From: an uncultured virus (IMG/VR IMGVR_UViG_3300032897_000528)
Lineage: Duplodnaviria > Heunggongvirae > Uroviricota > Caudoviricetes
Length of the DNA: 64,000 nt
Direction: 5' to 3' (one strand)
Virus record (IMG/VR): IMGVR_UViG_3300032897_000528
A program made the position numbers and the translations under genes. Position 1 is the first letter of the stretch, and each line of letters starts with the position of its first letter. This document shows, piece after piece, positions 9,472 through 63,320 of this stretch. The notes under the pieces were generated by a model. It made no database searches. It was not told where the DNA came from and saw nothing but the letters and a program-made list of their open reading frames with translations.

Positions 9472-9675
9472 CGTCACCCGGCAGTCGGTAGTGGGTCAGT
9501 TTGGGGAAAGATCGTGAGGCACGGATCGGCCGTTGGCGCAAGTCATCGATAAAGGAACGGGCTAGCGGCCATCGTCGGTGGTAAGTACATGCAAGGATAT
9601 CGCGACATGGTGGATAACGCTAATAGTCAGGATGTTTTGGACTACGGCGAAAATGTGGGTTACGATGATGCTGCA

Positions 9676-10749
9676 ATGGGATGGGCAACTCTTCAATACT
9701 CCCTGGATGAGGTGGCCTCTGCCGGAGATGTTCTGGTGGACAAGAAATGCTCCGCGGATGATTATGATCGCGCGCTAGATGTCGTAAATAATTGGAGATC
9801 GTGTCACGCATTTGCGCTGAATACGCTCCAAATGAACCTGCGAAGAAAGGCCAGTGCGATGGATGTGAATGCGACCATCGCGCAGAGGATCAAGCGGCTG
9901 CCTGCCATCATTCACAAACTAGATCGTCTCCGATGGCTCAGGCTCTCTAAGATACAGGACATCGGCGGATGCCGAGGAATTCTTTCAAACGTAAGGCAGG
10001 TGAACAAGTTACGTGATGAATTCGTCAACGGCTCTGGAATGCAACACATTCTTATTACACAGGATGATTACATCACCAACCCCAAGAAGACAGGATACCG
10101 TGGAATTCATCTCGTGTATGAGTATCGCAGTAAGAGGAACTCATTGCACAACGGTAGGAAGATCGAAATACAATTGCGTTCTCGTCTTCAGCATGCATGG
10201 GCCACTGCCGTAGAAACTGTTGGTTTGTTTTCACAACAGTATCTTAAGTCGAATCGCGGAGACACTAGATGGTTGCGTTTCTTTTCCCTTATGGGATCTG
10301 CAATGGCTCAGCGAGAAAAGGTTTCTCCCGTTCCAGGTACCCCAACAGACACCACCGAACTGATAAGCGAACTCACCACTCTGGCGTCTGAACTTGAAGT
10401 TAGGACCAAACTGGCCGCGTGGACGAGTGCGTTGCAGTGGGTAAGGCCGCAGCAGGAAGGGTCACACTTCTTATTATCACTTGACACCCGCGCCGAGCGC
10501 TTAACCGTCACGACATACGGAAAATCACAATTGGAACAGGCAAATGCGGATTATCTCAAATTAGAGAAGGACAATACTGGTAAACCTGGTCGAGATGCCG
10601 TTCTGGTCACGTTAGAGTCGGTGAAATCACTTCGAACCGCATACCCGAACTATTTTGCTGATACGCGACTGTTCATGGAGGCCGTAGACGCAGCTACGAA
10701 GAATCTTCTGACCAAGGGAAATCCCAGGCAGCTATCCCTGCCTATCTGA
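9676..10749 (+). CDS. capRel: RelA/SpoT-domain protein, CapRel-like fused toxSAS-antitoxin
   Basis: QRIKR, QDIGGCR, GYRGIH, EIQLRS..QHAWA synthetase motifs; N-terminal NWRSCH; C-terminal domain ending in AYPNYF (YxxY). Upstream ATGs at 9589 and 9607 are also possible. Confidence 0.8.
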   Translation: MGWATLQYSLDEVASAGDVLVDKKCSADDYDRALDVVNNWRSCHAFALNTLQMNLRRKASAMDVNATIAQRIKRLPAIIHKLDRLRWLRLSKIQDIGGCRGILSNVRQVNKLRDEFVNGSGMQHILITQDDYITNPKKTGYRGIHLVYEYRSKRNSLHNGRKIEIQLRSRLQHAWATAVETVGLFSQQYLKSNRGDTRWLRFFSLMGSAMAQREKVSPVPGTPTDTTELISELTTLASELEVRTKLAAWTSALQWVRPQQEGSHFLLSLDTRAERLTVTTYGKSQLEQANADYLKLEKDNTGKPGRDAVLVTLESVKSLRTAYPNYFADTRLFMEAVDAATKNLLTKGNPRQLSLPI

Positions 10750-11566
10750 GCAGATCCACAATCTCCCCAACCTCCCAAACGTGGTCGGTGACGTCCGCTG
10801 CCATCGCAGGCGTCACCCGCAGCGTCTGATGGATGCGCGCGAAGTTGTAGTGCATGAAGTGCAGAGCGACGGCTGCGCAGTGGTTCTCAAGTTTCTTTGA
10901 GAAGGCGTTAGTCAGGCGCGTGAACCGTCGCATGCTCATGCGCATTGTGAGGTTCTGACGCTCAACGTAGCTCGTGGAGATGTGCACCTTATCCGGTGTG
11001 CCGACGATGATTTCCTTCTTTGCGCCAGTGCAAAGCGCTGGACTGTAGCGGACCTCGGTGCCGACGTCGCGGTTGTCACTGCCGTACTGCTTGACCAGCA
11101 TCGCGTAGTCGATGTCGTTGCCGAAGGCGCGCTCTACCGCATCCACGTAGACCTTGTGGCCGTCGCTCGTGAGCTGCACGCGGTTGGCAAGCCGGCCAGC
11201 AAGGTCCGAGATGAAACGGTAAGCGGTCTCGGCGCTGCGGTCGCCAACCACCCACGAGGCGATCAACTTCGTCTCAGCGTCGAGCGCGGTCCACGTCCAA
11301 ACGTCGCCAATTCCGTGCGCGCCAGCATTCACCTGCTTCTGTTTGGCGCCGACGAATGACCAGATCTCATCGACCTGGACGCGCTTGCATGGAAGGTTCA
11401 CGAGGTGCTCGACCTGATAGGCCTCGCAGGCTTCGCCGAGTTCGAGCAAGAGCTTCTGAATCGTGTTCTTCGCGATGCCCGTCATGCGGACGGTGCCGCG
11501 GATGCTGTTACCCTCGACCAAAGCCTTGACCACTTGGATCTGCTTCTCTCGTGGCAACCGATTCAT
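10742..11566 (-). CDS. IS1-family DDE transposase
   Basis: N-terminal HTH (EGNSIRGTVR); VDEIWSFV, TSDG, YVERQNLTMR..RFTRLTNAFSKK, TPAMAA. Confidence 0.92.
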   Translation of the reverse strand: MNRLPREKQIQVVKALVEGNSIRGTVRMTGIAKNTIQKLLLELGEACEAYQVEHLVNLPCKRVQVDEIWSFVGAKQKQVNAGAHGIGDVWTWTALDAETKLIASWVVGDRSAETAYRFISDLAGRLANRVQLTSDGHKVYVDAVERAFGNDIDYAMLVKQYGSDNRDVGTEVRYSPALCTGAKKEIIVGTPDKVHISTSYVERQNLTMRMSMRRFTRLTNAFSKKLENHCAAVALHFMHYNFARIHQTLRVTPAMAADVTDHVWEVGEIVDLLR

Positions 11567-11596
11567 ACTGACCATTATGCGTGAGGGCTCTCGCAT

Positions 11597-11681
11597 ATGC
11601 AAGCATCTTTTTACAACCATGCTTGCATTCTTCTACATCTAGCGTAGTATGCAAGCATCAACAGAGAAAGGATGCTTGCAT
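11597..11681. promoter_or_regulatory. Four ATGCAAGCAT/ATGCTTGCAT boxes (candidate operators)
   Basis: Boxes at 11597, 11619, 11649 and 11672 in alternating orientation between the divergent transposase and P63C genes. Confidence 0.7.
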
Positions 11682-12669
11682 GTCCGATGAACCTACAGGA
11701 AAGGCAAAGGGTGGAGTCGCTCGGGCACTGGCCCTCTCGCCAGAGCGAAAAAGCAGCATTGCCAGAAGTGCAGCCATGGCGCGATGGGGTGAGAAACCGC
11801 TTCACGCTACGCACCGCGGTAATTTTAAGGAGGAATTTGGCATCGATGTTGGATGTTACGTGCTCGATGACGAACAAAAGACAGCAGTAATCAGTCAAAG
11901 CGGAATGGCGCCAGCTCTGGGGTTAGTCGCCGGAAGCGGTGGCCAGGCGCTGCGATTCGTCAACAGCATTAGACTTGCCCCATACGTCAGTGCCGAACTG
12001 GCGGAGAAATTGAAGAAGCCGCTTGTTTTCCAGTGGTTTTCTCCAGTGCCGAACAATCCGACGGTCATCGTACACGGCTATGACGTCACGATATTGGTCG
12101 ACATCTGCAAAGCCGTTCTCCAAGCGCACATGGACGGCAAGCTCCAGAAGCGCCATCAAAACATGGTGAGGCAGGCCCACATCATCCTGAATGCTTCGGC
12201 GAAGGCAGGAATTAAGGGCCTGGTCTACGCGTTGGCCGGGTACGACGCGACCAAAGAAGAGGTTATCGCCGCCTTCAAGACGTTTGTCCGAGAAGAGGCG
12301 CGCGAGTACGAAAAGGAGTTTCCGGACCAGCTCTACACTGAATGGTATCGTCTCTACAAATTGCCAAAACCAGAGAAGAATAGACCGTGGAAATTCAAGC
12401 ACCTTACAATTCGGCACGTCTACTATCCGCTGGCCAGAAGCAGCGGAAGGGTGCTCGATCTGCTTAAAGCGTTGCGGGCTAGAGGAACTGAGCGTCACAA
12501 GAAGCTACATCAATTCCTTTCGGATACTGGAGTCAAAGCGCTTCGCACTCATCTCGGACAGTTGGCCGGCATCGCCCAGGTATCTGACGACCGGGAGATG
12601 TACGAACGCTACTTCGATAGGATATTCGGTCGACAGCAAAGCCTCGACTTCTCGACGAGGACGACCTGA
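11680..12669 (+). CDS. P63C-domain protein
   Basis: KGGVARA..LSPERKS.IA..AAMARW N-terminus; CYVLDD; C-terminal EKEFPDQLY.EWYRL..VYYPL..KLHQFL. Confidence 0.8.
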   Translation: MSDEPTGKAKGGVARALALSPERKSSIARSAAMARWGEKPLHATHRGNFKEEFGIDVGCYVLDDEQKTAVISQSGMAPALGLVAGSGGQALRFVNSIRLAPYVSAELAEKLKKPLVFQWFSPVPNNPTVIVHGYDVTILVDICKAVLQAHMDGKLQKRHQNMVRQAHIILNASAKAGIKGLVYALAGYDATKEEVIAAFKTFVREEAREYEKEFPDQLYTEWYRLYKLPKPEKNRPWKFKHLTIRHVYYPLARSSGRVLDLLKALRARGTERHKKLHQFLSDTGVKALRTHLGQLAGIAQVSDDREMYERYFDRIFGRQQSLDFSTRTT

Positions 12670-12671
12670 TC

Positions 12672-12908
12672 CTATTTATCCCACCGCGCCAGCGCCGCCT
12701 TCTTCGCCGCCTCGCTCAGCTTCTTCTTGCCGAGCTTCTTCGCCCTGGCCTTCCCACCCTTGAGCCCACCCAAGCGCCCTAGCGCAACGGCTGCTGCGTT
12801 CTTGCCTTCGTCCGTCTTGACCTCTGCTGGAGCTTCTCCCGTGGCCATGGCCGTCACCATGTGGGCTAGTTGGTTCGTATCGCGTGGCATGCGTGAGCGC
12901 TTTTGCAT
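12672..12908 (-). CDS. Small basic protein typical of IS1-associated passenger sets
   Basis: PRDTNQLA..KNAAAVALGRLGGLKGGKARA..ARW. Confidence 0.75.
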   Translation of the reverse strand: MQKRSRMPRDTNQLAHMVTAMATGEAPAEVKTDEGKNAAAVALGRLGGLKGGKARAKKLGKKKLSEAAKKAALARWDK

Positions 12909-41898: not shown

Positions 41899-42268
41899 GA
41901 GTCACCTCGCGATCGTCCGAGTCGCCCACCTCTCTGTACTCGACGTACTGCCCTTCGGGCAGCTCGACCAGAGAGATCTGAGCGCTCTGACCCGACTCGA
42001 TCATTCGTACTAGATCTTCGACCGAGATACCCAGCAGCTCCGCTGCCGACTCGACCGCAAGGTCAGGAGTGCCTGGCACGTACTCCAGGATGAAGACGCC
42101 CCGCGCTGGCATCTCTGTCCCGAGCGGCAGAATAAGGCCAGGAAACCCAAGGTCAAGCAGGGAGATCTTCGCGCTTCCGGAAGCAAGCCTGACCTCGAAG
42201 CTCCGCCGTATAGACCATGCCTCTCCGGTTACTTGACAAAGCTCCTTTTCAGAGCTATTCTTAGAGGT

Positions 42269-43360
42269 ATGGATAGCAGAGGATTTCCTACATCCCTCCC
42301 CGAATTTCAACGCGTCTTTCCAGACGATGCCGCATGTACTAAGTACCTGGAAGCTTTGAGGTGGCCGGATGGATTCACATGCCCCAAGTGTGGCTGGCAC
42401 GGCGAGCCGTATCGCTTCGCGACGCGTAGCTCTACCGTGTTGCGCTGCAAGGTGTGCGGTGACAAGGGCAACATTTCCCTCACGGCCGGCACGGTCATGC
42501 AAAAGACCCACACGCCCCTTTCCACGTGGTTCTGGGGCGCGTATCTTGTGACCACGCAGACGCCGGGCATGTCGGCCCTTCAATTCCAAAGGCAACTGGG
42601 CTTGTCCCGCTACGAGACGGCCTTCCAGATACTCCACAAGCTGCGAGCGGGGATGGTCCGTCCCGACCGCGATACAATTGGAGGAGAGCACGCCGTTGAG
42701 GTCGATGAGTGCTATGTAGGCGGCAAGACGCGCGGGGAGGGACACGGTGTTCACCACCAAGCCACTGTGGTCGGCGCTGTCGAGGTACGAACACGTAAAG
42801 ATGCCGATGATCGAGCGGCCAAGTGGAAAGAGACACACGAAAAGGGAATCCCCGTCAAGCGGCTTGTCTATGCCGGTCGACTCCGATTGCAAATGGTCTC
42901 CGACATGCCCGGCAAGCTCGAAGTGATGGCTGATCCGGGTTTGTCGGGCCGAAGTGCTGAAAGGTTGCTCGGTTTCGTTCAAGAGAACGTAACACCGGGC
43001 TCGAAGGTCCGAACAGATGGGTGGATTGGCTATCGAGGCCTGACAGAAGCCGGCTACGAACACGACTCGCTTGTACTCGGTGGAGATCCTGAAAAGGCCG
43101 AGGCTCACTTGCCTATGATCCACTTGGTCTTCGGCAATTTGAAGTCTTGGCTTCGAGGCACCCATCATGGAGTTTCGCAGCAGCATCTTCCAGCCTATCT
43201 CAATGAGTTCGTGTTCCGTTTCAACCGTCGTTTCTATCCAATGACCGCGTTCAACTCCGTTTTGGGCCTCGCAGTGAAGACAATTCCACCGACTTACGAG
43301 CAGTTGTATTCCGGAGAGTGGATTCATCCGGGTTCGTCGTCTTCGTCGGAGGCTGCGTAA
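42269..43360 (+). CDS. IS1595-family transposase
   Basis: RWPDGFTCPKC zinc ribbon; VEVDECYVGG; RTDGW; GTHHGVS..HL..YLNEF.FRFNRR. Confidence 0.95.
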   Translation: MDSRGFPTSLPEFQRVFPDDAACTKYLEALRWPDGFTCPKCGWHGEPYRFATRSSTVLRCKVCGDKGNISLTAGTVMQKTHTPLSTWFWGAYLVTTQTPGMSALQFQRQLGLSRYETAFQILHKLRAGMVRPDRDTIGGEHAVEVDECYVGGKTRGEGHGVHHQATVVGAVEVRTRKDADDRAAKWKETHEKGIPVKRLVYAGRLRLQMVSDMPGKLEVMADPGLSGRSAERLLGFVQENVTPGSKVRTDGWIGYRGLTEAGYEHDSLVLGGDPEKAEAHLPMIHLVFGNLKSWLRGTHHGVSQQHLPAYLNEFVFRFNRRFYPMTAFNSVLGLAVKTIPPTYEQLYSGEWIHPGSSSSSEAA

Positions 43361-43438
43361 AAAAGTTGTAGTCCTCCAGAAGGATCGCCCGCTGTTTGGT
43401 GAACATGCGGCGCATGCGATAAAGGCGTTGAAGAAGCG

Positions 43439-44281
43439 TCATGTAATGGTCGCTTCTTTGACCGGCCCACTCCTACTTATGTGCCCTCGACAATAATTTT
43501 TGTTGTCGGCTCCGATTCCAGTGGCGTCTTCGCCGCAGTTGTGAATAGCGCATGGCAAATTGTCTCGCCAAACACGCAAGTACGCGTAACGTATTTCCGG
43601 TTCTTGGTGGAATAACCTTTCAAAACAATTGAGGCACACCATAGGATTATCCCCGAGTTCAGAAAGCAATGTCTTGCCTTCAGCGGAGTCCGCAAATTCA
43701 TGCGGCACCTGATAGAAATAAGTGCGCTTCTGTTGATGTGAGAAGGAACGACAGCCCTTAACCGGGCAGGTTTCCAGCGTTTCCAGGTCTTCTTTCCATC
43801 GATCTTGTCGCGCTTCCAAACTTCGATTAGACGATTTCTTGTCTAATCCTGCCGGCTTGATATGCAGCTCTGTATTCGCAATAGTTGTCTCCAGTTCAAC
43901 AATTCGATTTGCTCGCGCCAAAAGAAGCGCTTGATTACTCTCGCGTTCACGCGATTCGTTGCGAGCGTCTAATTCCAACGCAGCGATTCGATCCCGTAAC
44001 GGCTTCGTTTCCTTCGCCAAAAAATCATCTATATGAGACCCAACAGTGTGTATCGCAATCACAGAGAAAAAAATGAACCCACCACCCAGAATGAACCAAA
44101 CGGGCGTCCAGTCTCGCGCTGCCCACCAAATAGTCGGGTCAACACGCAGCATTAGAACCATTACGCTGACGACCGCCGCACCAAATATTGGCAAAAACGG
44201 CGCCACGCGTTTCATGAAGCGCCCCACAGTCTTGAGGCGTTTCCATTGTTCCTCGATATCGGGTACGAGATCAGATCCCAT
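43439..44281 (-). CDS. Passenger gene: 2-TM, coiled-coil, Cys-rich protein
   Basis: Low GC; two hydrophobic helices; CPVKGC, CLNC, CAIHNC..CRGH. Confidence 0.7.
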   Translation of the reverse strand: MGSDLVPDIEEQWKRLKTVGRFMKRVAPFLPIFGAAVVSVMVLMLRVDPTIWWAARDWTPVWFILGGGFIFFSVIAIHTVGSHIDDFLAKETKPLRDRIAALELDARNESRERESNQALLLARANRIVELETTIANTELHIKPAGLDKKSSNRSLEARQDRWKEDLETLETCPVKGCRSFSHQQKRTYFYQVPHEFADSAEGKTLLSELGDNPMVCLNCFERLFHQEPEIRYAYLRVWRDNLPCAIHNCGEDATGIGADNKNYCRGHISRSGPVKEATIT

Positions 44282-44380
44282 GGTGCGCTACAGTATCTTA
44301 CCCGCCACACCACTGTCAAGTAACCGTATAGGCATGGTATAGACTTCCTGGCGATGTCCACATCCTCGCGCATGTCAGAC

Positions 44381-44743
44381 CTACGAGTCCCAACCGTAGT
44401 CGTCGCCCCGCTCGCGCCGCCTCCCGCGACCCCCGTCTCGACGCTTGGGCTCCCTCGACGGTGCGCCGGCCCGACGCTGGCCGCTCCGCGGTCCGGTAGA
44501 CACGGCGTCTTCGACGTGCAGATCTCGGTCGCCGATCATTGCTCCGGCCAAAGCGGCCTTGGCGGCATCGGCGTCAGCACCTTCCGCGAGCTCGACGAAC
44601 GCGTACCCGCGCGACCTGCCGGTCTCCCGGTCCGTCACTACCTTGACAGAAGCGTGAGCGACCCCGCGCTCGCGCAGCAGGCTGCCGAGCTCAGCGTCGG
44701 TGGCGGACCAGGGCAGGTTGCCCAGAAAGAGCCTTGTTCCCAT
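44381..44743 (-). CDS. RRM RNA-binding protein
   Basis: RLFLGNLPW (RNP2), DRETGRSRGYAFVE (RNP1), Arg/Gly tail. Confidence 0.9.
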   Translation of the reverse strand: MGTRLFLGNLPWSATDAELGSLLRERGVAHASVKVVTDRETGRSRGYAFVELAEGADADAAKAALAGAMIGDRDLHVEDAVSTGPRSGQRRAGAPSREPKRRDGGRGRRRERGDDYGWDS

Positions 44744-50524: not shown

Positions 50525-50782
50525 TCACTCAGTTGATTTTGGAACTGTCGATCCAATTTGACCCAGTAAAAAACCGAGACTGCGATTATGCTCCTCCTCG
50601 TCAGACTCAGAAAATCCGTAGAACGTGTCGATGCGCTCATGGACATCCCCAGCATCATCCTTGATCTGCATGCCATTCCCGAGTCCAACAGCCGCAAAGG
50701 CTTCTCGCGCTGAGGTAAGATCGTTGAACCTCATCTCTGTTGTACAACAGCCACAGTCATTTTTCGCGTAAACAGTTATCAT
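50525..50782 (-). CDS. Lower-GC hypothetical protein
   Basis: AAGGA ribosome-binding site; ends KSTE*. Confidence 0.55.
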   Translation of the reverse strand: MITVYAKNDCGCCTTEMRFNDLTSAREAFAAVGLGNGMQIKDDAGDVHERIDTFYGFSESDEEEHNRSLGFLLGQIGSTVPKSTE

Positions 50783-50844: not shown

Positions 50845-51124
50845 CATGCCTATCCAATTGACGTCCTTTCTAGACGTTTCCACTCATTATAATCACGTCC
50901 TTCGATCTTTTGTCGTGATCTTCGTTGTGGGGCCACGTTTCCGTATCCATTTGCAAGGGACATGCTCCATCGTGTTCGCAACCTTCGCAATTGTGCATAC
51001 TTGTGGCCGTCTCTATTGATTCTTCCGGCACTTTTCCTTGATTAACCCAGTAATTGCACCCTGCCCATTTCACCATCTTCAAACTCCTATCGATCTGGTG
51101 GAGTGTGTGAACCGGATAAGCACG
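50845..51124 (-). mobile_element. Non-autonomous IS1595-type mini-cassette A (280 bp)
   Basis: Ends CATGCCTATCCAATTGAC / GTGAACCGGATAAGCACG; 8-bp TSD CTTCCTCG at 50837-50844 and 51125-51132. Confidence 0.88.
50870..51076 (-). CDS. Cassette A cargo: 68-aa Cys-containing protein
   Basis: AGGAG in cassette end; MVKWAGCNYW..CEGC..C. Confidence 0.65.
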   Translation of the reverse strand: MVKWAGCNYWVNQGKVPEESIETATSMHNCEGCEHDGACPLQMDTETWPHNEDHDKRSKDVIIMSGNV

Positions 51125-60331: not shown

Positions 60332-60350
60332 AATTGACCTACTGACAATC

Positions 60351-60407
60351 CACGCCTATCCAGCAGACGAGTGCTCTCGCTCTTTCGTCCATGCCTATCA
60401 GATTAAC
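60351..60407 (+). mobile_element. Two stacked solo cassette-type ends
   Basis: CACGCCTATCCAGCAGAC (60351) and CATGCCTATCAGATTAAC (60390). Confidence 0.55.
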
Positions 60408-60413
60408 AACCCA

Positions 60414-60683
60414 TCAAGGTACAACTACGGACTTGACAGGGCCATATGCTGTCACCAAGTCTTGGCACACACATTGTAAACAGATCGCACCAGTGCCTGC
60501 AGTGACGGACTTTCCTTCCGCGTCAGTCCATGAAAAACAAACTGGATCACTGCGTATATTACCGGTCTGTTTTGGAAACCTCCAAGTATGACCTCGCTTG
60601 CACGTGTGCAATTCCCATTCATACAAGATGTTCAACGAAGCACTTGTAGAAATCTCAAAAACTTGTTTTTGTTCAGTTGTCAT
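60414..60683 (-). CDS. Low-GC small Cys/His protein
   Basis: MTTEQKQV..CKRGH..C..CLQC; AAGGA before ATG; lies upstream of the stacked ends. Confidence 0.5.
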   Translation of the reverse strand: MTTEQKQVFEISTSASLNILYEWELHTCKRGHTWRFPKQTGNIRSDPVCFSWTDAEGKSVTAGTGAICLQCVCQDLVTAYGPVKSVVVP

Positions 60684-60693
60684 CCTTTTCCTC

Positions 60694-61128
60694 TCAATCC
60701 TGCGGCACGACGATGAGAGCTCCCGTGATGTTCCGAGCGCTGGCATTCGTGTTGGTCACACCCACCCGAATCTGATCGCCCCTCTTCACGGGTCGCATCC
60801 TCAGCGGGCAGGGATACTGGGGGAGGTAGTCCTCGACCTTAGCCTCCGGCCTGCACTGACGGAGCACCTCCTCCGTCAGCTCGTCCGTCGACGAGAACAG
60901 AGTGGCCGGCACGGGATCGTCAGCGTCGAGCAGCACGTGGTCCTCCCGGAGGGCGCCGCCCTCGCGAGTCACCGTCGAGATCTGGTAGACCAAGAAGTCT
61001 ACCGCCACGTGCTCGGGGATGAACAGTCGCACGGGAACTACGTCTCGCTCAACCATGAAATGAAAGAGCATCGACGAGTTGCCACTCACGGCATGGACGC
61101 CCAGTCCCTTGACCAAGTACTTTTCCAT
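60694..61128 (-). CDS. All-beta domain protein (family A); current start supplied by cassette B end
   Basis: VPVRLFIP..VAVDFLV..VPATLF..IRVGVTN; ATG at 61128 lies in the cassette terminus. Confidence 0.65.
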   Translation of the reverse strand: MEKYLVKGLGVHAVSGNSSMLFHFMVERDVVPVRLFIPEHVAVDFLVYQISTVTREGGALREDHVLLDADDPVPATLFSSTDELTEEVLRQCRPEAKVEDYLPQYPCPLRMRPVKRGDQIRVGVTNTNASARNITGALIVVPQD

Positions 61129-61372
61129 GCCTATCCGGTTGACGCTCCACTGAAGGCTCCGCCGTTCTTCAAAAGCCACTTGTGCAGACGTTTTTGTACG
61201 TGATCTCGTTCTGAATCACTCATGAATCCGTGGACATGCAAAGCACCAGCGCAAGCCAACATACGTTTGAGGCATGTCTCGGACTTCCAGGTTGGAAACT
61301 TGGCATAAGGCCGTAATTTCGACATTTCAAACTCCTATCGAGTTAGTGGTGTGCGTGAACCGGATAAGCATG
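61126..61372 (-). mobile_element. Non-autonomous IS1595-type mini-cassette B (247 bp)
   Basis: Ends CATGCCTATCCGGTTGAC / GTGAACCGGATAAGCATG (16/18 inverted repeat); 8-bp TSD TACTTTTC at 61118-61125 and 61373-61380. Confidence 0.92.
61131..61325 (-). CDS. Cassette B cargo: 64-aa protein
   Basis: AGGAG in one end and TAG stop inside the other end. Confidence 0.7.
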   Translation of the reverse strand: MSKLRPYAKFPTWKSETCLKRMLACAGALHVHGFMSDSERDHVQKRLHKWLLKNGGAFSGASTG

Positions 61373-61416
61373 TACTTTTCCGATCCCATTTAAATTGAAA
61401 GTCGCTGAGCTGTCAG

Positions 61417-61911: not shown

Positions 61912-62223
61912 TCACCAACTCAATAAAACCACAGCGATCATGGCGCACACTATACCAATTGATCGACGAGCTGTTATTGGCTCTCCAAACCAACCTACCC
62001 CTAGTGCAACTAGTGCGACGGTCGAGAGCAGGATCCAGACTATTCCTGTCAGGTACAGACTTCTACCTATCCTCAGGGCCGGCAGCCAACTCGCGCCACT
62101 TAGGGCGTAACAGATCACAGAAACCCACGCCCAACTGATCCCGTCCCCCAGACTCCATTTCTTGGAGAAAAAATCACCCAGCCCGACTAGAAACCCCGAC
62201 AGTATTAGCCAAAAATACATCAC
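61912..62223 (-). CDS. SMR/DMT-like small multi-pass membrane protein
   Basis: Four hydrophobic segments; GD..SK; FGE.I...GI. Confidence 0.7.
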   Translation of the reverse strand: MMYFWLILSGFLVGLGDFFSKKWSLGDGISWAWVSVICYALSGASWLPALRIGRSLYLTGIVWILLSTVALVALGVGWFGEPITARRSIGIVCAMIAVVLLSW

Positions 62224-63320
62224 GTCTCACCCTTCTCTCCCAGGTAGTGTGCCGGTCGCTTGCCGTCAGGGGTCCAGATGAAGCGCACCAGGAGCACGGT
62301 CGGCGGCAGACCCCGCTTCTCCATCAAGCTCTCGAGCATGGCCCGGAGGCCCACCTTGTAGTCGGTCAGGGCGTTCTGCACGGCGCCTCCACCCCAACCC
62401 TGAGTCGGGTACGTCCCGATCTGGAAGAGACCTCGGTGCTTCTTGTAGAGATCTTCGATCTCTCCGACCTCAGCCTCGTTCTGCGGCCCAAACCGCACAC
62501 CAAACGACACCCAGAAGGCTCCCCCCATGGGTGGTCTCGACGGGAAGTACTCGAAGTACCGGAACACATGGCTCAAGAACTCCACGATGAGAGTATGAGC
62601 GCCGGCCTCTCGCCAGATGTCAGGCAGAGACTCGATCCGGAGCTCCCCGTCTACGGTCCCGTCAGCGTTGACGTACGTCTGCACACCCATCACGAGACCC
62701 GCACCCTCAGCAGCGATGCCGTCGAAGAGCGCCACGAGCCTCGTCTGCATCAAGATCTCCGCCTGCCTCGACCTCTCGGGCAGGAGGGGCAGCTCAGGCC
62801 TCCTGCGCTTGCGCTTGCGCTTCCCAGGCTTCTTAGCGACTGGCTTCCTCGCGACTGGCTTCCTCGCGGCAGGCTTCCTCGCGGCAGGCTTCCTCGCGGC
62901 AGGCTTCCTCGCGGCAGGCTTCCTCGTGGCAGGCTTCTTCGCGGCAGGCTTCTTCGCGGCAGGCTTCCTCGCGACGGGCTTCCTCGCGGCAGGCTTCCTC
63001 GAGACGGGCTTCCTCGCGACGGGCTTCCTCGCGGCAGGCTTCCTCGAGACGGGCTTCCTCGCGACGGGCTTCCTGGCAGCAGTCTTCTTTGCCTCTGGCT
63101 TCCTCGAGACGGACTTCTTGGCGGCAAACTTCTTCGCAGCAGGCTTCTTGGCTGCTGACTTCCTCGCGGCGGGCTTCTTCGCTGCAGTCTTCTCAGCCTC
63201 TGACTTCCTCGCCACGGTCTCTATCTCAGCCAGCTTCTTGGCGAAGCGACCGAGCTCGTCGCGAGGCTGCCGCCTTCGTCCCCTGCTAGCCACTCTGGTC
63301 CTCGCTCGACTGGTCGGCAA
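62220..63320 (-). CDS. Histone-H1-like basic repeat protein with globular C-terminal domain
   Basis: QPRDELGRF motif, more than 20 K-P-A/V-A-R/K-type pentapeptides, then about 190-aa domain. Confidence 0.75.
   Translation of the reverse strand: MPTSRARTRVASRGRRRQPRDELGRFAKKLAEIETVARKSEAEKTAAKKPAARKSAAKKPAAKKFAAKKSVSRKPEAKKTAARKPVARKPVSRKPAARKPVARKPVSRKPAARKPVARKPAAKKPAAKKPATRKPAARKPAARKPAARKPAARKPVARKPVAKKPGKRKRKRRRPELPLLPERSRQAEILMQTRLVALFDGIAAEGAGLVMGVQTYVNADGTVDGELRIESLPDIWREAGAHTLIVEFLSHVFRYFEYFPSRPPMGGAFWVSFGVRFGPQNEAEVGEIEDLYKKHRGLFQIGTYPTQGWGGGAVQNALTDYKVGLRAMLESLMEKRGLPPTVLLVRFIWTPDGKRPAHYLGEKGET
62822..63190. repeat. 15-bp coding tandem repeat (GCGGCAGGCTTCCTC consensus)
   Basis: Encodes the KPAAR repeats; no spacers. 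Confidence 0.92.

Follow-up and report, generated by a model that had tools for sequence, protein, structure and literature searches.

A 247-bp mobile insertion cassette, termed cassette B, interrupts a gene of an uncultured virus close to its start, and the terminal ATG of the cassette probably provides this gene with a new start codon through a relay of ribosomes. The window, that is, the whole stretch of DNA analysed here, has 64,000 nucleotides (IMG/VR record IMGVR_UViG_3300032897_000528). It is seemingly part of a large phage genome and nearly all of its genes lie on the minus strand. They include genes for a sigma-70-type factor, a Dam-type methylase, a thymidylate kinase, a protein-primed-type PolB, an SF1 helicase and an Amidase_2 protein, as well as nucleotide-modification genes. 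The features discussed below are collected in Table 1.

Table 1. Positions of the cassettes, the resident IS, the interrupted gene and other features. Positions are those of the window unless a locus is named.
Feature	Position	Strand	Basis or remark
Cassette B, transposase-less IS1595-type mobile insertion cassette, 247 bp	61126..61372	-	no mismatch to the repeat motif at either end
Upstream copy of the target duplication, GAAAAGTA	61373..61380	-	perfect 8 bp, read from the sequence
Downstream copy of GAAAAGTA, now codons 2-4 of the restarted host ORF	61118..61125	-	sequence reading
Conserved 5' module: terminal CATG, repeat, leader frame, GGAG ribosome-binding site for the cargo	61326..61372	-	
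Leader ORF made by the insertion: MGSEKY + MLIRFTHTTNSIGV + TGA	61327..61389	-	stop at element offset 43
Cargo ORF of cassette B, 64 aa	61131..61325	-	ORF list; GGAG upstream
Terminal ATG of the 3' repeat, proposed new host start	61126..61128	-	sequence; frame; homologue alignment
Host gene in its present form, 144 aa	60694..61128	-	ORF list; five homologues
Original host start codon (MGSEKYL...)	61387..61389	-	sequence; N-terminus of homologue P0001
Cassette A, 280 bp, duplication CGAGGAAG	50845..51124	-	same 5' module; unrelated 68-aa cargo
Autonomous IS, 2121 bp, duplication GTATAGAC	42216..44336	+	end motif with 1 mismatch at each end
IS1595-type transposase, 375 aa	42233..43360	+	Pfam DDE_Tnp_IS1595 6.7e-30, Zn_ribbon_IS1595 2.2e-13
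IS passenger ORF, 280 aa	43439..44281	-	ORF list
RelA/SpoT-domain ORF	9589..10749		low-GC island
IS1-type transposase ORF	10742..11620		low-GC island
P63C-domain ORF	11581..12669		low-GC island
Tandem cassette arrays	L164:791-1798; L215:1993-2564 (= L216:619-1190); L227:902-1513		

With up to 3 mismatches allowed, the window contains 10 occurrences of the end motif, where 1.54 would be expected, and none of 100 shuffles reached 10. The matches pair into three elements, namely cassette A, cassette B and an autonomous IS, each with a perfect 8-bp duplication. The target duplication of the IS1595 family is 8 bp. Read on the minus strand, cassette B starts with CATGCTTATCCGGTT and ends with AACCGGATAGGCATG, and its GC content is 0.49 against 0.58 in the flanks. 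Its sole ORF is the cargo and no transposase is present. Judged from its sequence, cassette B is a non-autonomous derivative of the IS1595 family, i.e. a mobile insertion cassette, and this structural reading is secure. The size would also fit a MITE; this identity was rejected because a conserved protein-coding ORF lies inside the element, which is thus not non-coding. The cargo has homologues of 86%, 78% and 33% identity that share its conserved residues and core. Therefore, it is regarded as a real gene. Searches against Pfam and PHROG gave no match for cargo A, cargo B, the host gene or the passenger ORF of the IS, and neither promoter-like nor terminator-like sites were found inside cassette B. 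Cassettes A and B are 89% identical over the 45 nt of the 5' module and their cargo ORFs are unrelated. We infer that cassette B was mobilised in trans, presumably by a transposase like the one encoded by the phage itself. A second autonomous relative is L349 (1.5e-33). Contigs from the same wetland samples have nothing but both ends of cassette B in common with it, with other DNA between them. No cassette-free form was found in the contigs of three wetland sequencing runs, and the insertion-bearing form of the phage was assembled at a depth of about 200 in one of them.

The interrupted gene has a GC content of 0.67/0.38/0.81 by codon position. Removal of the element and one copy of the duplication in silico restored the N-terminus MGSEKYLVK, with the insertion 3 codons in and 143 codons downstream of it. 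The old ATG is followed by GGA TCG and then by the first copy of GAAAAGTA. The same empty site, MGSEKYL, had been reconstructed in the first-pass annotation, and it was borne out by P0001, the nearest uninterrupted homologue (94% identical), whose N-terminus is MGSVKYLVK (sequence MGSVKYLVKGLG). The position given there for the old ATG, 61388, was one base off, the codon lying at 61389..61387. At the other end of the cassette, the cargo stop TAG (61133..61131) is followed by GC at 61130..61129 and then by the terminal ATG (61128..61126, minus strand). The next codons, GAA AAG TAC TTG, continue in the frame of the 144-aa ORF, so that the product would begin with MEKYLVK. The TAG and the last cargo residues, ASTG, come from the 3' repeat. 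Two earlier claims, that an in-frame ATG stands two bases past the cargo TAG and that one inverted repeat gives both the cargo stop and the downstream start, can be read directly in these bases.

A comparison of the N-termini of host-gene homologues, as had been proposed, was carried out with the five homologues that were found and aligned. P0002 begins with MEFEKYL and P0003 with M-TKLETREKYL, and P0004 and P0005 are extended at the N-terminus by a domain of about 78 aa. None of the 56 invariant columns of the alignment precedes Y4 of the restarted ORF. Since the first invariant column is Y4, a restart at the terminal ATG would cost only Gly-Ser and would keep every invariant residue. The description of the insertion as nearly harmless is therefore well supported by the comparison. 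Between the cargo stop and Y4, the terminal ATG is the sole in-frame start. A search of viral contigs for relatives of the host gene at the DNA level gave 63 pattern matches, none of which was confirmed.

The arrangement of the two ends suggests how the host gene would be translated. Both termini are the palindrome CATG, and each therefore presents an outward-facing ATG. As the first base of the duplication is also the first base of a codon, the outward ATG and GAAAAGTA rebuild the frame, with MEKYLVK in place of MGSEKYLVK. At the upstream end, the 8-bp duplication plus C makes three codons, which places the old host ATG in frame with the 5' terminal ATG; the host start would therefore feed a leader of 20 codons. 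This leader crosses the 5' repeat and stops 1 nt short of the cargo ATG, and the other two frames of the 5' module end sooner, at TAA and at the TAG of GATAGG. Cassette B inserted in the gene's own direction, three codons in, with its 8-bp duplication. In the proposed relay, ribosomes would initiate at the old host ATG (61389) and read the leader across the 5' repeat, melting the mRNA stem that the two repeats can form. They would stop 1 nt ahead of the cargo ATG, which would itself be served by GGAG. The cargo would then be translated up to the TAG within the 3' repeat, and reinitiation would take place 2 nt further on, at the terminal ATG. A stop followed after 2 nt by a start is a classic setting for translational restart in coupled genes.

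Upstream of ATG 61128, a GGAG lies at 16 nt and a GGA at 5 nt, and there is no canonical ribosome-binding site at a working distance. Nor is a ribosome-binding site evident at the old host ATG. Folding of the mRNA is predicted to pair the two repeats with each other, so that both terminal AUGs would be buried. Such a stem is expected, since inverted repeats pair by construction, and the predicted RNA fold of the region was not more stable than that of shuffled sequences (z = -1.42). The absence of a good ribosome-binding site and the predicted burial of the AUG make independent initiation at 61128 unlikely and would favour restart after the cargo. From the general behaviour of coupled genes, we infer that ATG 61128 is probably used and that it would be reached by termination and restart. 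A translational coupling of cargo and host gene, as the first reading of the DNA had suggested, would fit the architecture that is conserved throughout the cassette family.

For the family census, a 16-nt end pattern was searched and gave 32 viral loci and 120 genome loci. The full 5' module was present in 9 of the 32 viral loci and in 2 of the 120 genome loci (L078 and L138), and 9 of these 11 module-bearing loci have perfect 8-bp duplications. The other 118 genome loci, from which the module is absent, look like chance matches and were dropped before the elements were counted. Metagenome contigs searched with a longer 5' pattern gave at least 125 loci, and viral contigs searched with a 3' pattern gave at least 141. 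From the viral and metagenome contigs, at least 102 unique elements were obtained in which both ends are present and the two copies of the duplication agree at no fewer than 7 of 8 positions. Their sizes range from 205 to 2265 bp among the matches listed, and 65 of the 102 fall between 200 and 399 bp. Six of the 102 are composites of adjacent cassettes; thus 96 simple elements among the matches listed were analysed. Near-identical cargos are carried by L138, L177 and L212 with three different duplications.

The ends of these elements have a uniform design. Among the matches listed, 88 of 96 elements have ATG as their 5' terminal codon and 7 have GTG, and the 3' terminal ATG is present in 83 of 96. 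Because so many relatives have ATG at the 3' end, the terminal ATG of cassette B is a fixed repeat end and no chance feature. Chance enters only through the phase, with a probability of 1 in 3. In the element alignment, again among the matches listed, the repeat is near-invariant over positions 1-18. The shared 5' module of 45 nt comprises the terminal ATG, a short leader ORF and a ribosome-binding site, and the 3' end of the family, a module of about 22 nt, reads TAR-GC-ATG. The leader starts at the 5' terminal ATG, has the consensus MLIRFTHST... and spans the module. In 17 of 91 elements, its stop and the cargo start share bases as ATGA, and in 58 of 91 the stop falls between -8 and +14 nt relative to the cargo ATG (among the matches listed). 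The codon-position periodicity of the leader is weak, with mean entropies of 0.71, 0.49 and 0.89 at positions 1, 2 and 3.

A cargo ORF is present in 92 of the 96 elements, and these 92 cargos of the matches listed form 74 blastp clusters. A Pfam search with 61 of the 92 gave 7 matches, mainly DNA methyltransferases. Among the matches listed, 21 of 92 cargos use the TAR of the 3' repeat as their stop and encode proteins ending in ...STG, and in another 20 of 92 the stop lies exactly 22 nt from the element end. Cargo ORFs fit precisely into the interval from the 45-nt 5' module to the 3' module, either fused in frame to the repeat stop or ending 22 nt away from the end.

Enrichment of in-frame rescue among other insertions, a test suggested in the first-pass annotation, was then assessed with the family, and no significant excess was obtained. 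ORFs of at least 60 aa open at the terminal ATG in 18 of 96 elements on the sense strand and in 17 of 96 on the antisense strand (among the matches listed). This raw ORF-length test is blurred, because high-GC DNA has many spurious open frames. After GC3 filtering, 18 sense frames among the matches listed were distributed as 5:8:5 over phases 0, 1 and 2. For insertions 1-12 codons past a plausible start the distribution was 7:6:4, likewise among the matches listed, and both sets of counts are small and noisy.

Individual parallels to cassette B were also curated. The host start lies 1-6 codons upstream and the insertion is in phase in cassette A, L188, L205 (452 bp), L200 (268 bp) and L215 (307 bp). 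In L188, which is the same insertion as L010, GTG GGA precedes the duplication, and the ORF has 154 aa and a motif from which we take the product to be nuclease-like. Cassette A lies in the same phase as cassette B, 6 codons into an ORF of 26 codons. Its leader is MIGLLARGS-VLIRFTHSTRSIGV, with the old host ATG in frame with the 5' terminal ATG as in cassette B. The TGA of its restarted 21-codon ORF overlaps the ATG of the next gene (50525..50782), and the chain of coupled genes is thus kept. The out-of-phase cases are L212 and the IS of the window. The latter lies in phase 2 of the ORF MREDVDIARK/SIRR..., so the earlier statement that this IS is out of frame stands. Altogether, 6 curated cases are in phase and 2 are not, which is suggestive, but the count was made post hoc.

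The target was analysed with 78 clean insertion sites among the matches listed. Its consensus is approximately G-W-W-N-R-W-W-C followed by N-A. Position 1 is G in 44 of the 78 sites, position 8 is C in 41, and the second base past the duplication is A in 45. The A at +2 means that the recognised target is longer than the duplication and asymmetric with respect to the direction of the cargo. Ribosome-binding motifs between -12 and +8 of the duplication number 57 on the cargo (sense) strand and 17 on the antisense strand, compared with 88 and 61 elsewhere in the flanks. Host ATGs peak in the duplication (position +2, of the GAATGAAC type) and one base past it (+9). Together, the ATG peaks and the ribosome-binding motifs indicate that a typical insertion falls on the start codon, or between it and the ribosome-binding site, in the sense direction. 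The host's own ATG is retained in such an insertion. Landing on or just before the start codon is therefore the commoner way in which a gene is spared. Cassette B landed slightly deeper, and hence its terminal ATG has to supply the start.

Cassettes often stand head to tail, with spacers of exactly 8 nt that repeat the target duplication (e.g. GAATGAAC three times). In these arrays, up to three cassettes precede one host gene, and the ATG lies inside the repeated 8-mer. This arrangement suggests repeated insertion into a regenerated target, which leads to integron-like arrays. A 307-bp cassette at L215:1499-1806 is nested in phase two codons into a cargo of the L138 type (MKKERLYH...). Its terminal ATG would restart the interrupted cargo as MKERLYH....

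A restart at ATG 61128 by the ribosome relay is the best explanation for the present form of the host gene and is probably correct. It has to be weighed against the unlikely case that the in-frame ATG is a coincidence, i.e. that a dispensable gene was knocked out and its ORF is intact since the insertion is recent. An intact ORF after a recent insertion indeed proves little, because the host gene may be dispensable, and no Pfam or PHROG family is known for it. Phase 0 has a prior of 1 in 3, and the family counts without a significant in-frame excess agree with chance, as do the absence of a good ribosome-binding site ahead of 61128 and the predicted repeat stem that buries the AUG. A coincidence would, however, have to be repeated in cassette A, which has the same phase and a restarted ORF whose TGA overlaps the ATG of the next gene, and in four more curated in-phase cases on other contigs. 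The distance of 2 nt between stop and start, the classic geometry of restart, also argues against it. A different start for the host protein is very unlikely. GTG 61179 would give a protein of 161 aa with 17 cassette-encoded residues; the frame is open across the 3' repeat and 60694..61179 is the longest ORF in the host frame. However, no ribosome-binding motif lies upstream of this GTG, and it is situated inside the cargo ORF in a different frame. TTG, GTG or ATG codons further downstream would drop the invariant residues Y4, G8 and G10.

It is also somewhat unlikely that the terminal ATG and the repeat stops are by-products of the sequence bound by the transposase and have no translational role, selection keeping those insertions that fall on or before start codons. 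The CATG termini and the TAR belong to the transposase-binding repeat with its near-invariant positions 1-18, most surviving insertions retain the host's ATG in or after the duplication, and the leader shows little codon periodicity, all of which this explanation would accommodate. It leaves unexplained, however, why the leader frame is open up to the cargo ATG when the other two frames close earlier, and why the cargo is so frequently fused to the repeat stop (21 of 92 among the matches listed). Moreover, such an origin of the ends is compatible with cassette B still using its terminal ATG, as the ribosome relay supposes.

As far as the consulted parts of the sources describe them, mobile insertion cassettes (MICs) and passenger-bearing IS1595 elements are the known kind to which the cassettes belong. 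In MICs, IS ends flank passenger DNA and no transposase is present (PMC3129680). An example is MIC231 of Bacillus cereus, which is derived from IS231 (De Palmenaer et al. 2004, via PMC3129680). Cassette B resembles MICs, so far as these are described there, in its IS ends, in the lack of a transposase and in a mobility that presumably requires a cognate IS of the same genome. The present cassettes differ from the MICs of that account in their IS1595 parent, the 8-bp duplications and the phage hosts. They also differ in the one tight ORF between the 45-nt 5' and the ~22-nt 3' modules, and in ends that carry start and stop codons laid out for a read-through relay. IS1595-family elements with passenger genes have been termed 'transporter IS' (Siguier, Gagnevin and Chandler 2009, via PMC3129680). 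The IS of the window has the transposase domains of the IS1595 family, an 8-bp duplication and a passenger ORF. The cassettes share the ends of the window IS but lack the transposase.

Ultra-small mobile elements with a small ORF, MPME1 and MPME2, have been described in mycobacteriophages (PMC3029335). In the consulted part of that study, they are two near-identical elements of 439-440 bp with one conserved ORF and 6 added bp of unknown origin, and no transposase is known for them. In phage Hope, MPME1 lies near the 5' end of a gene, and the larger 3' part of this gene persists as a separate gene (PMC3029335). Cassette B is likewise, by this description, a tiny phage-borne mobile element with a small ORF. 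Identity with the MPMEs was rejected, since the cassettes, with sizes of 205-2265 bp, 74 cargo clusters, 8-bp duplications and a known transposase family, are set apart by the description given for those elements. Integron cassettes have attC sites and use a tyrosine recombinase and a single attI site. They are like the present cassettes in the promoterless single ORF, the diverse cargo, the head-to-tail stacks and the expression from the host context. Identity with them was rejected because the ends found here are inverted repeats with target duplications at many sites, which is the DDE-transposition type. Phage morons usually have their own promoter and terminator and no defined mobile ends; like the cassettes, they are accessory genes that lie between or within phage genes and leave the operon undisturbed. 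An IS1595-type phage cassette family with dozens of cargos was not found in the openly readable literature, a scope outside which Siguier et al. 2009 falls. IS ends that act as start codons or as fixed translational adaptors at both ends were not found in the openly readable literature either. The same holds for a translation-initiation-region preference and for arrays of such cassettes in that literature.

Phage genomes are tightly packed, so that nearly every insertion should be lethal, yet small accessory genes are constantly gained by a route that is poorly understood. We tentatively propose that the cassettes may form a transposase-driven gene-cassette system of environmental phages, which would be integron-like in its outcome. 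The fixed 45-nt 5' and ~22-nt 3' adaptors would allow nearly any small ORF to be plugged into the initiation region of any phage gene and expressed from that gene by the relay, and arrays would form through repeated insertion into the regenerated 8-bp target. If this is true, the rescue of the start codon by cassette B would be one output of the adaptor design. If the cassettes do bring their own translational plug, with a start at one end and a stop and restart at the other, this would explain the spread of dozens of unrelated small genes, including those for DNA methyltransferases, among uncultured phages of soil and wetland without breakage of operons. Such cassettes could moreover serve as a minimal natural model for inserting genes free of polarity.

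Further observations were made in the rest of the window. A diverged 3' cassette end with 2 mismatches lies at 60390..60404 (minus strand), and no matching 5' end was found. The stop of a low-GC, Cys-rich ORF of 89 aa (60414..60683, minus strand) is 22 nt from this end, the spacing also seen in 20 of the 92 family cargos among the matches listed. One wetland contig has 741 other bases in place of 60336..60696. The segment 60390..60683 may be what is left of a third cassette, or else a variable slot. The N-terminal extension of P0004 and P0005 has the pattern C-x-RGH...C-x-x-C and is weakly similar to the ORF at 60414..60683 (E = 0.018 in a single comparison). From this similarity, the product of that ORF, which lies just downstream of the host gene, and the host-gene product may be functional partners. 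A low-GC island (0.49-0.53) extends over 9500..12700. An RRM_1 RNA-recognition-motif protein (2.8e-15) is encoded at 44381..44743 (minus strand), just upstream of the IS insertion. Finally, a very basic protein of 366 aa with about 25 tandem 15-nt repeats (AAKKP/AARKP) is encoded at 62220..63320 (minus strand). It matches the histone H1-like HC2 family (2e-22), which is unusual in a phage.
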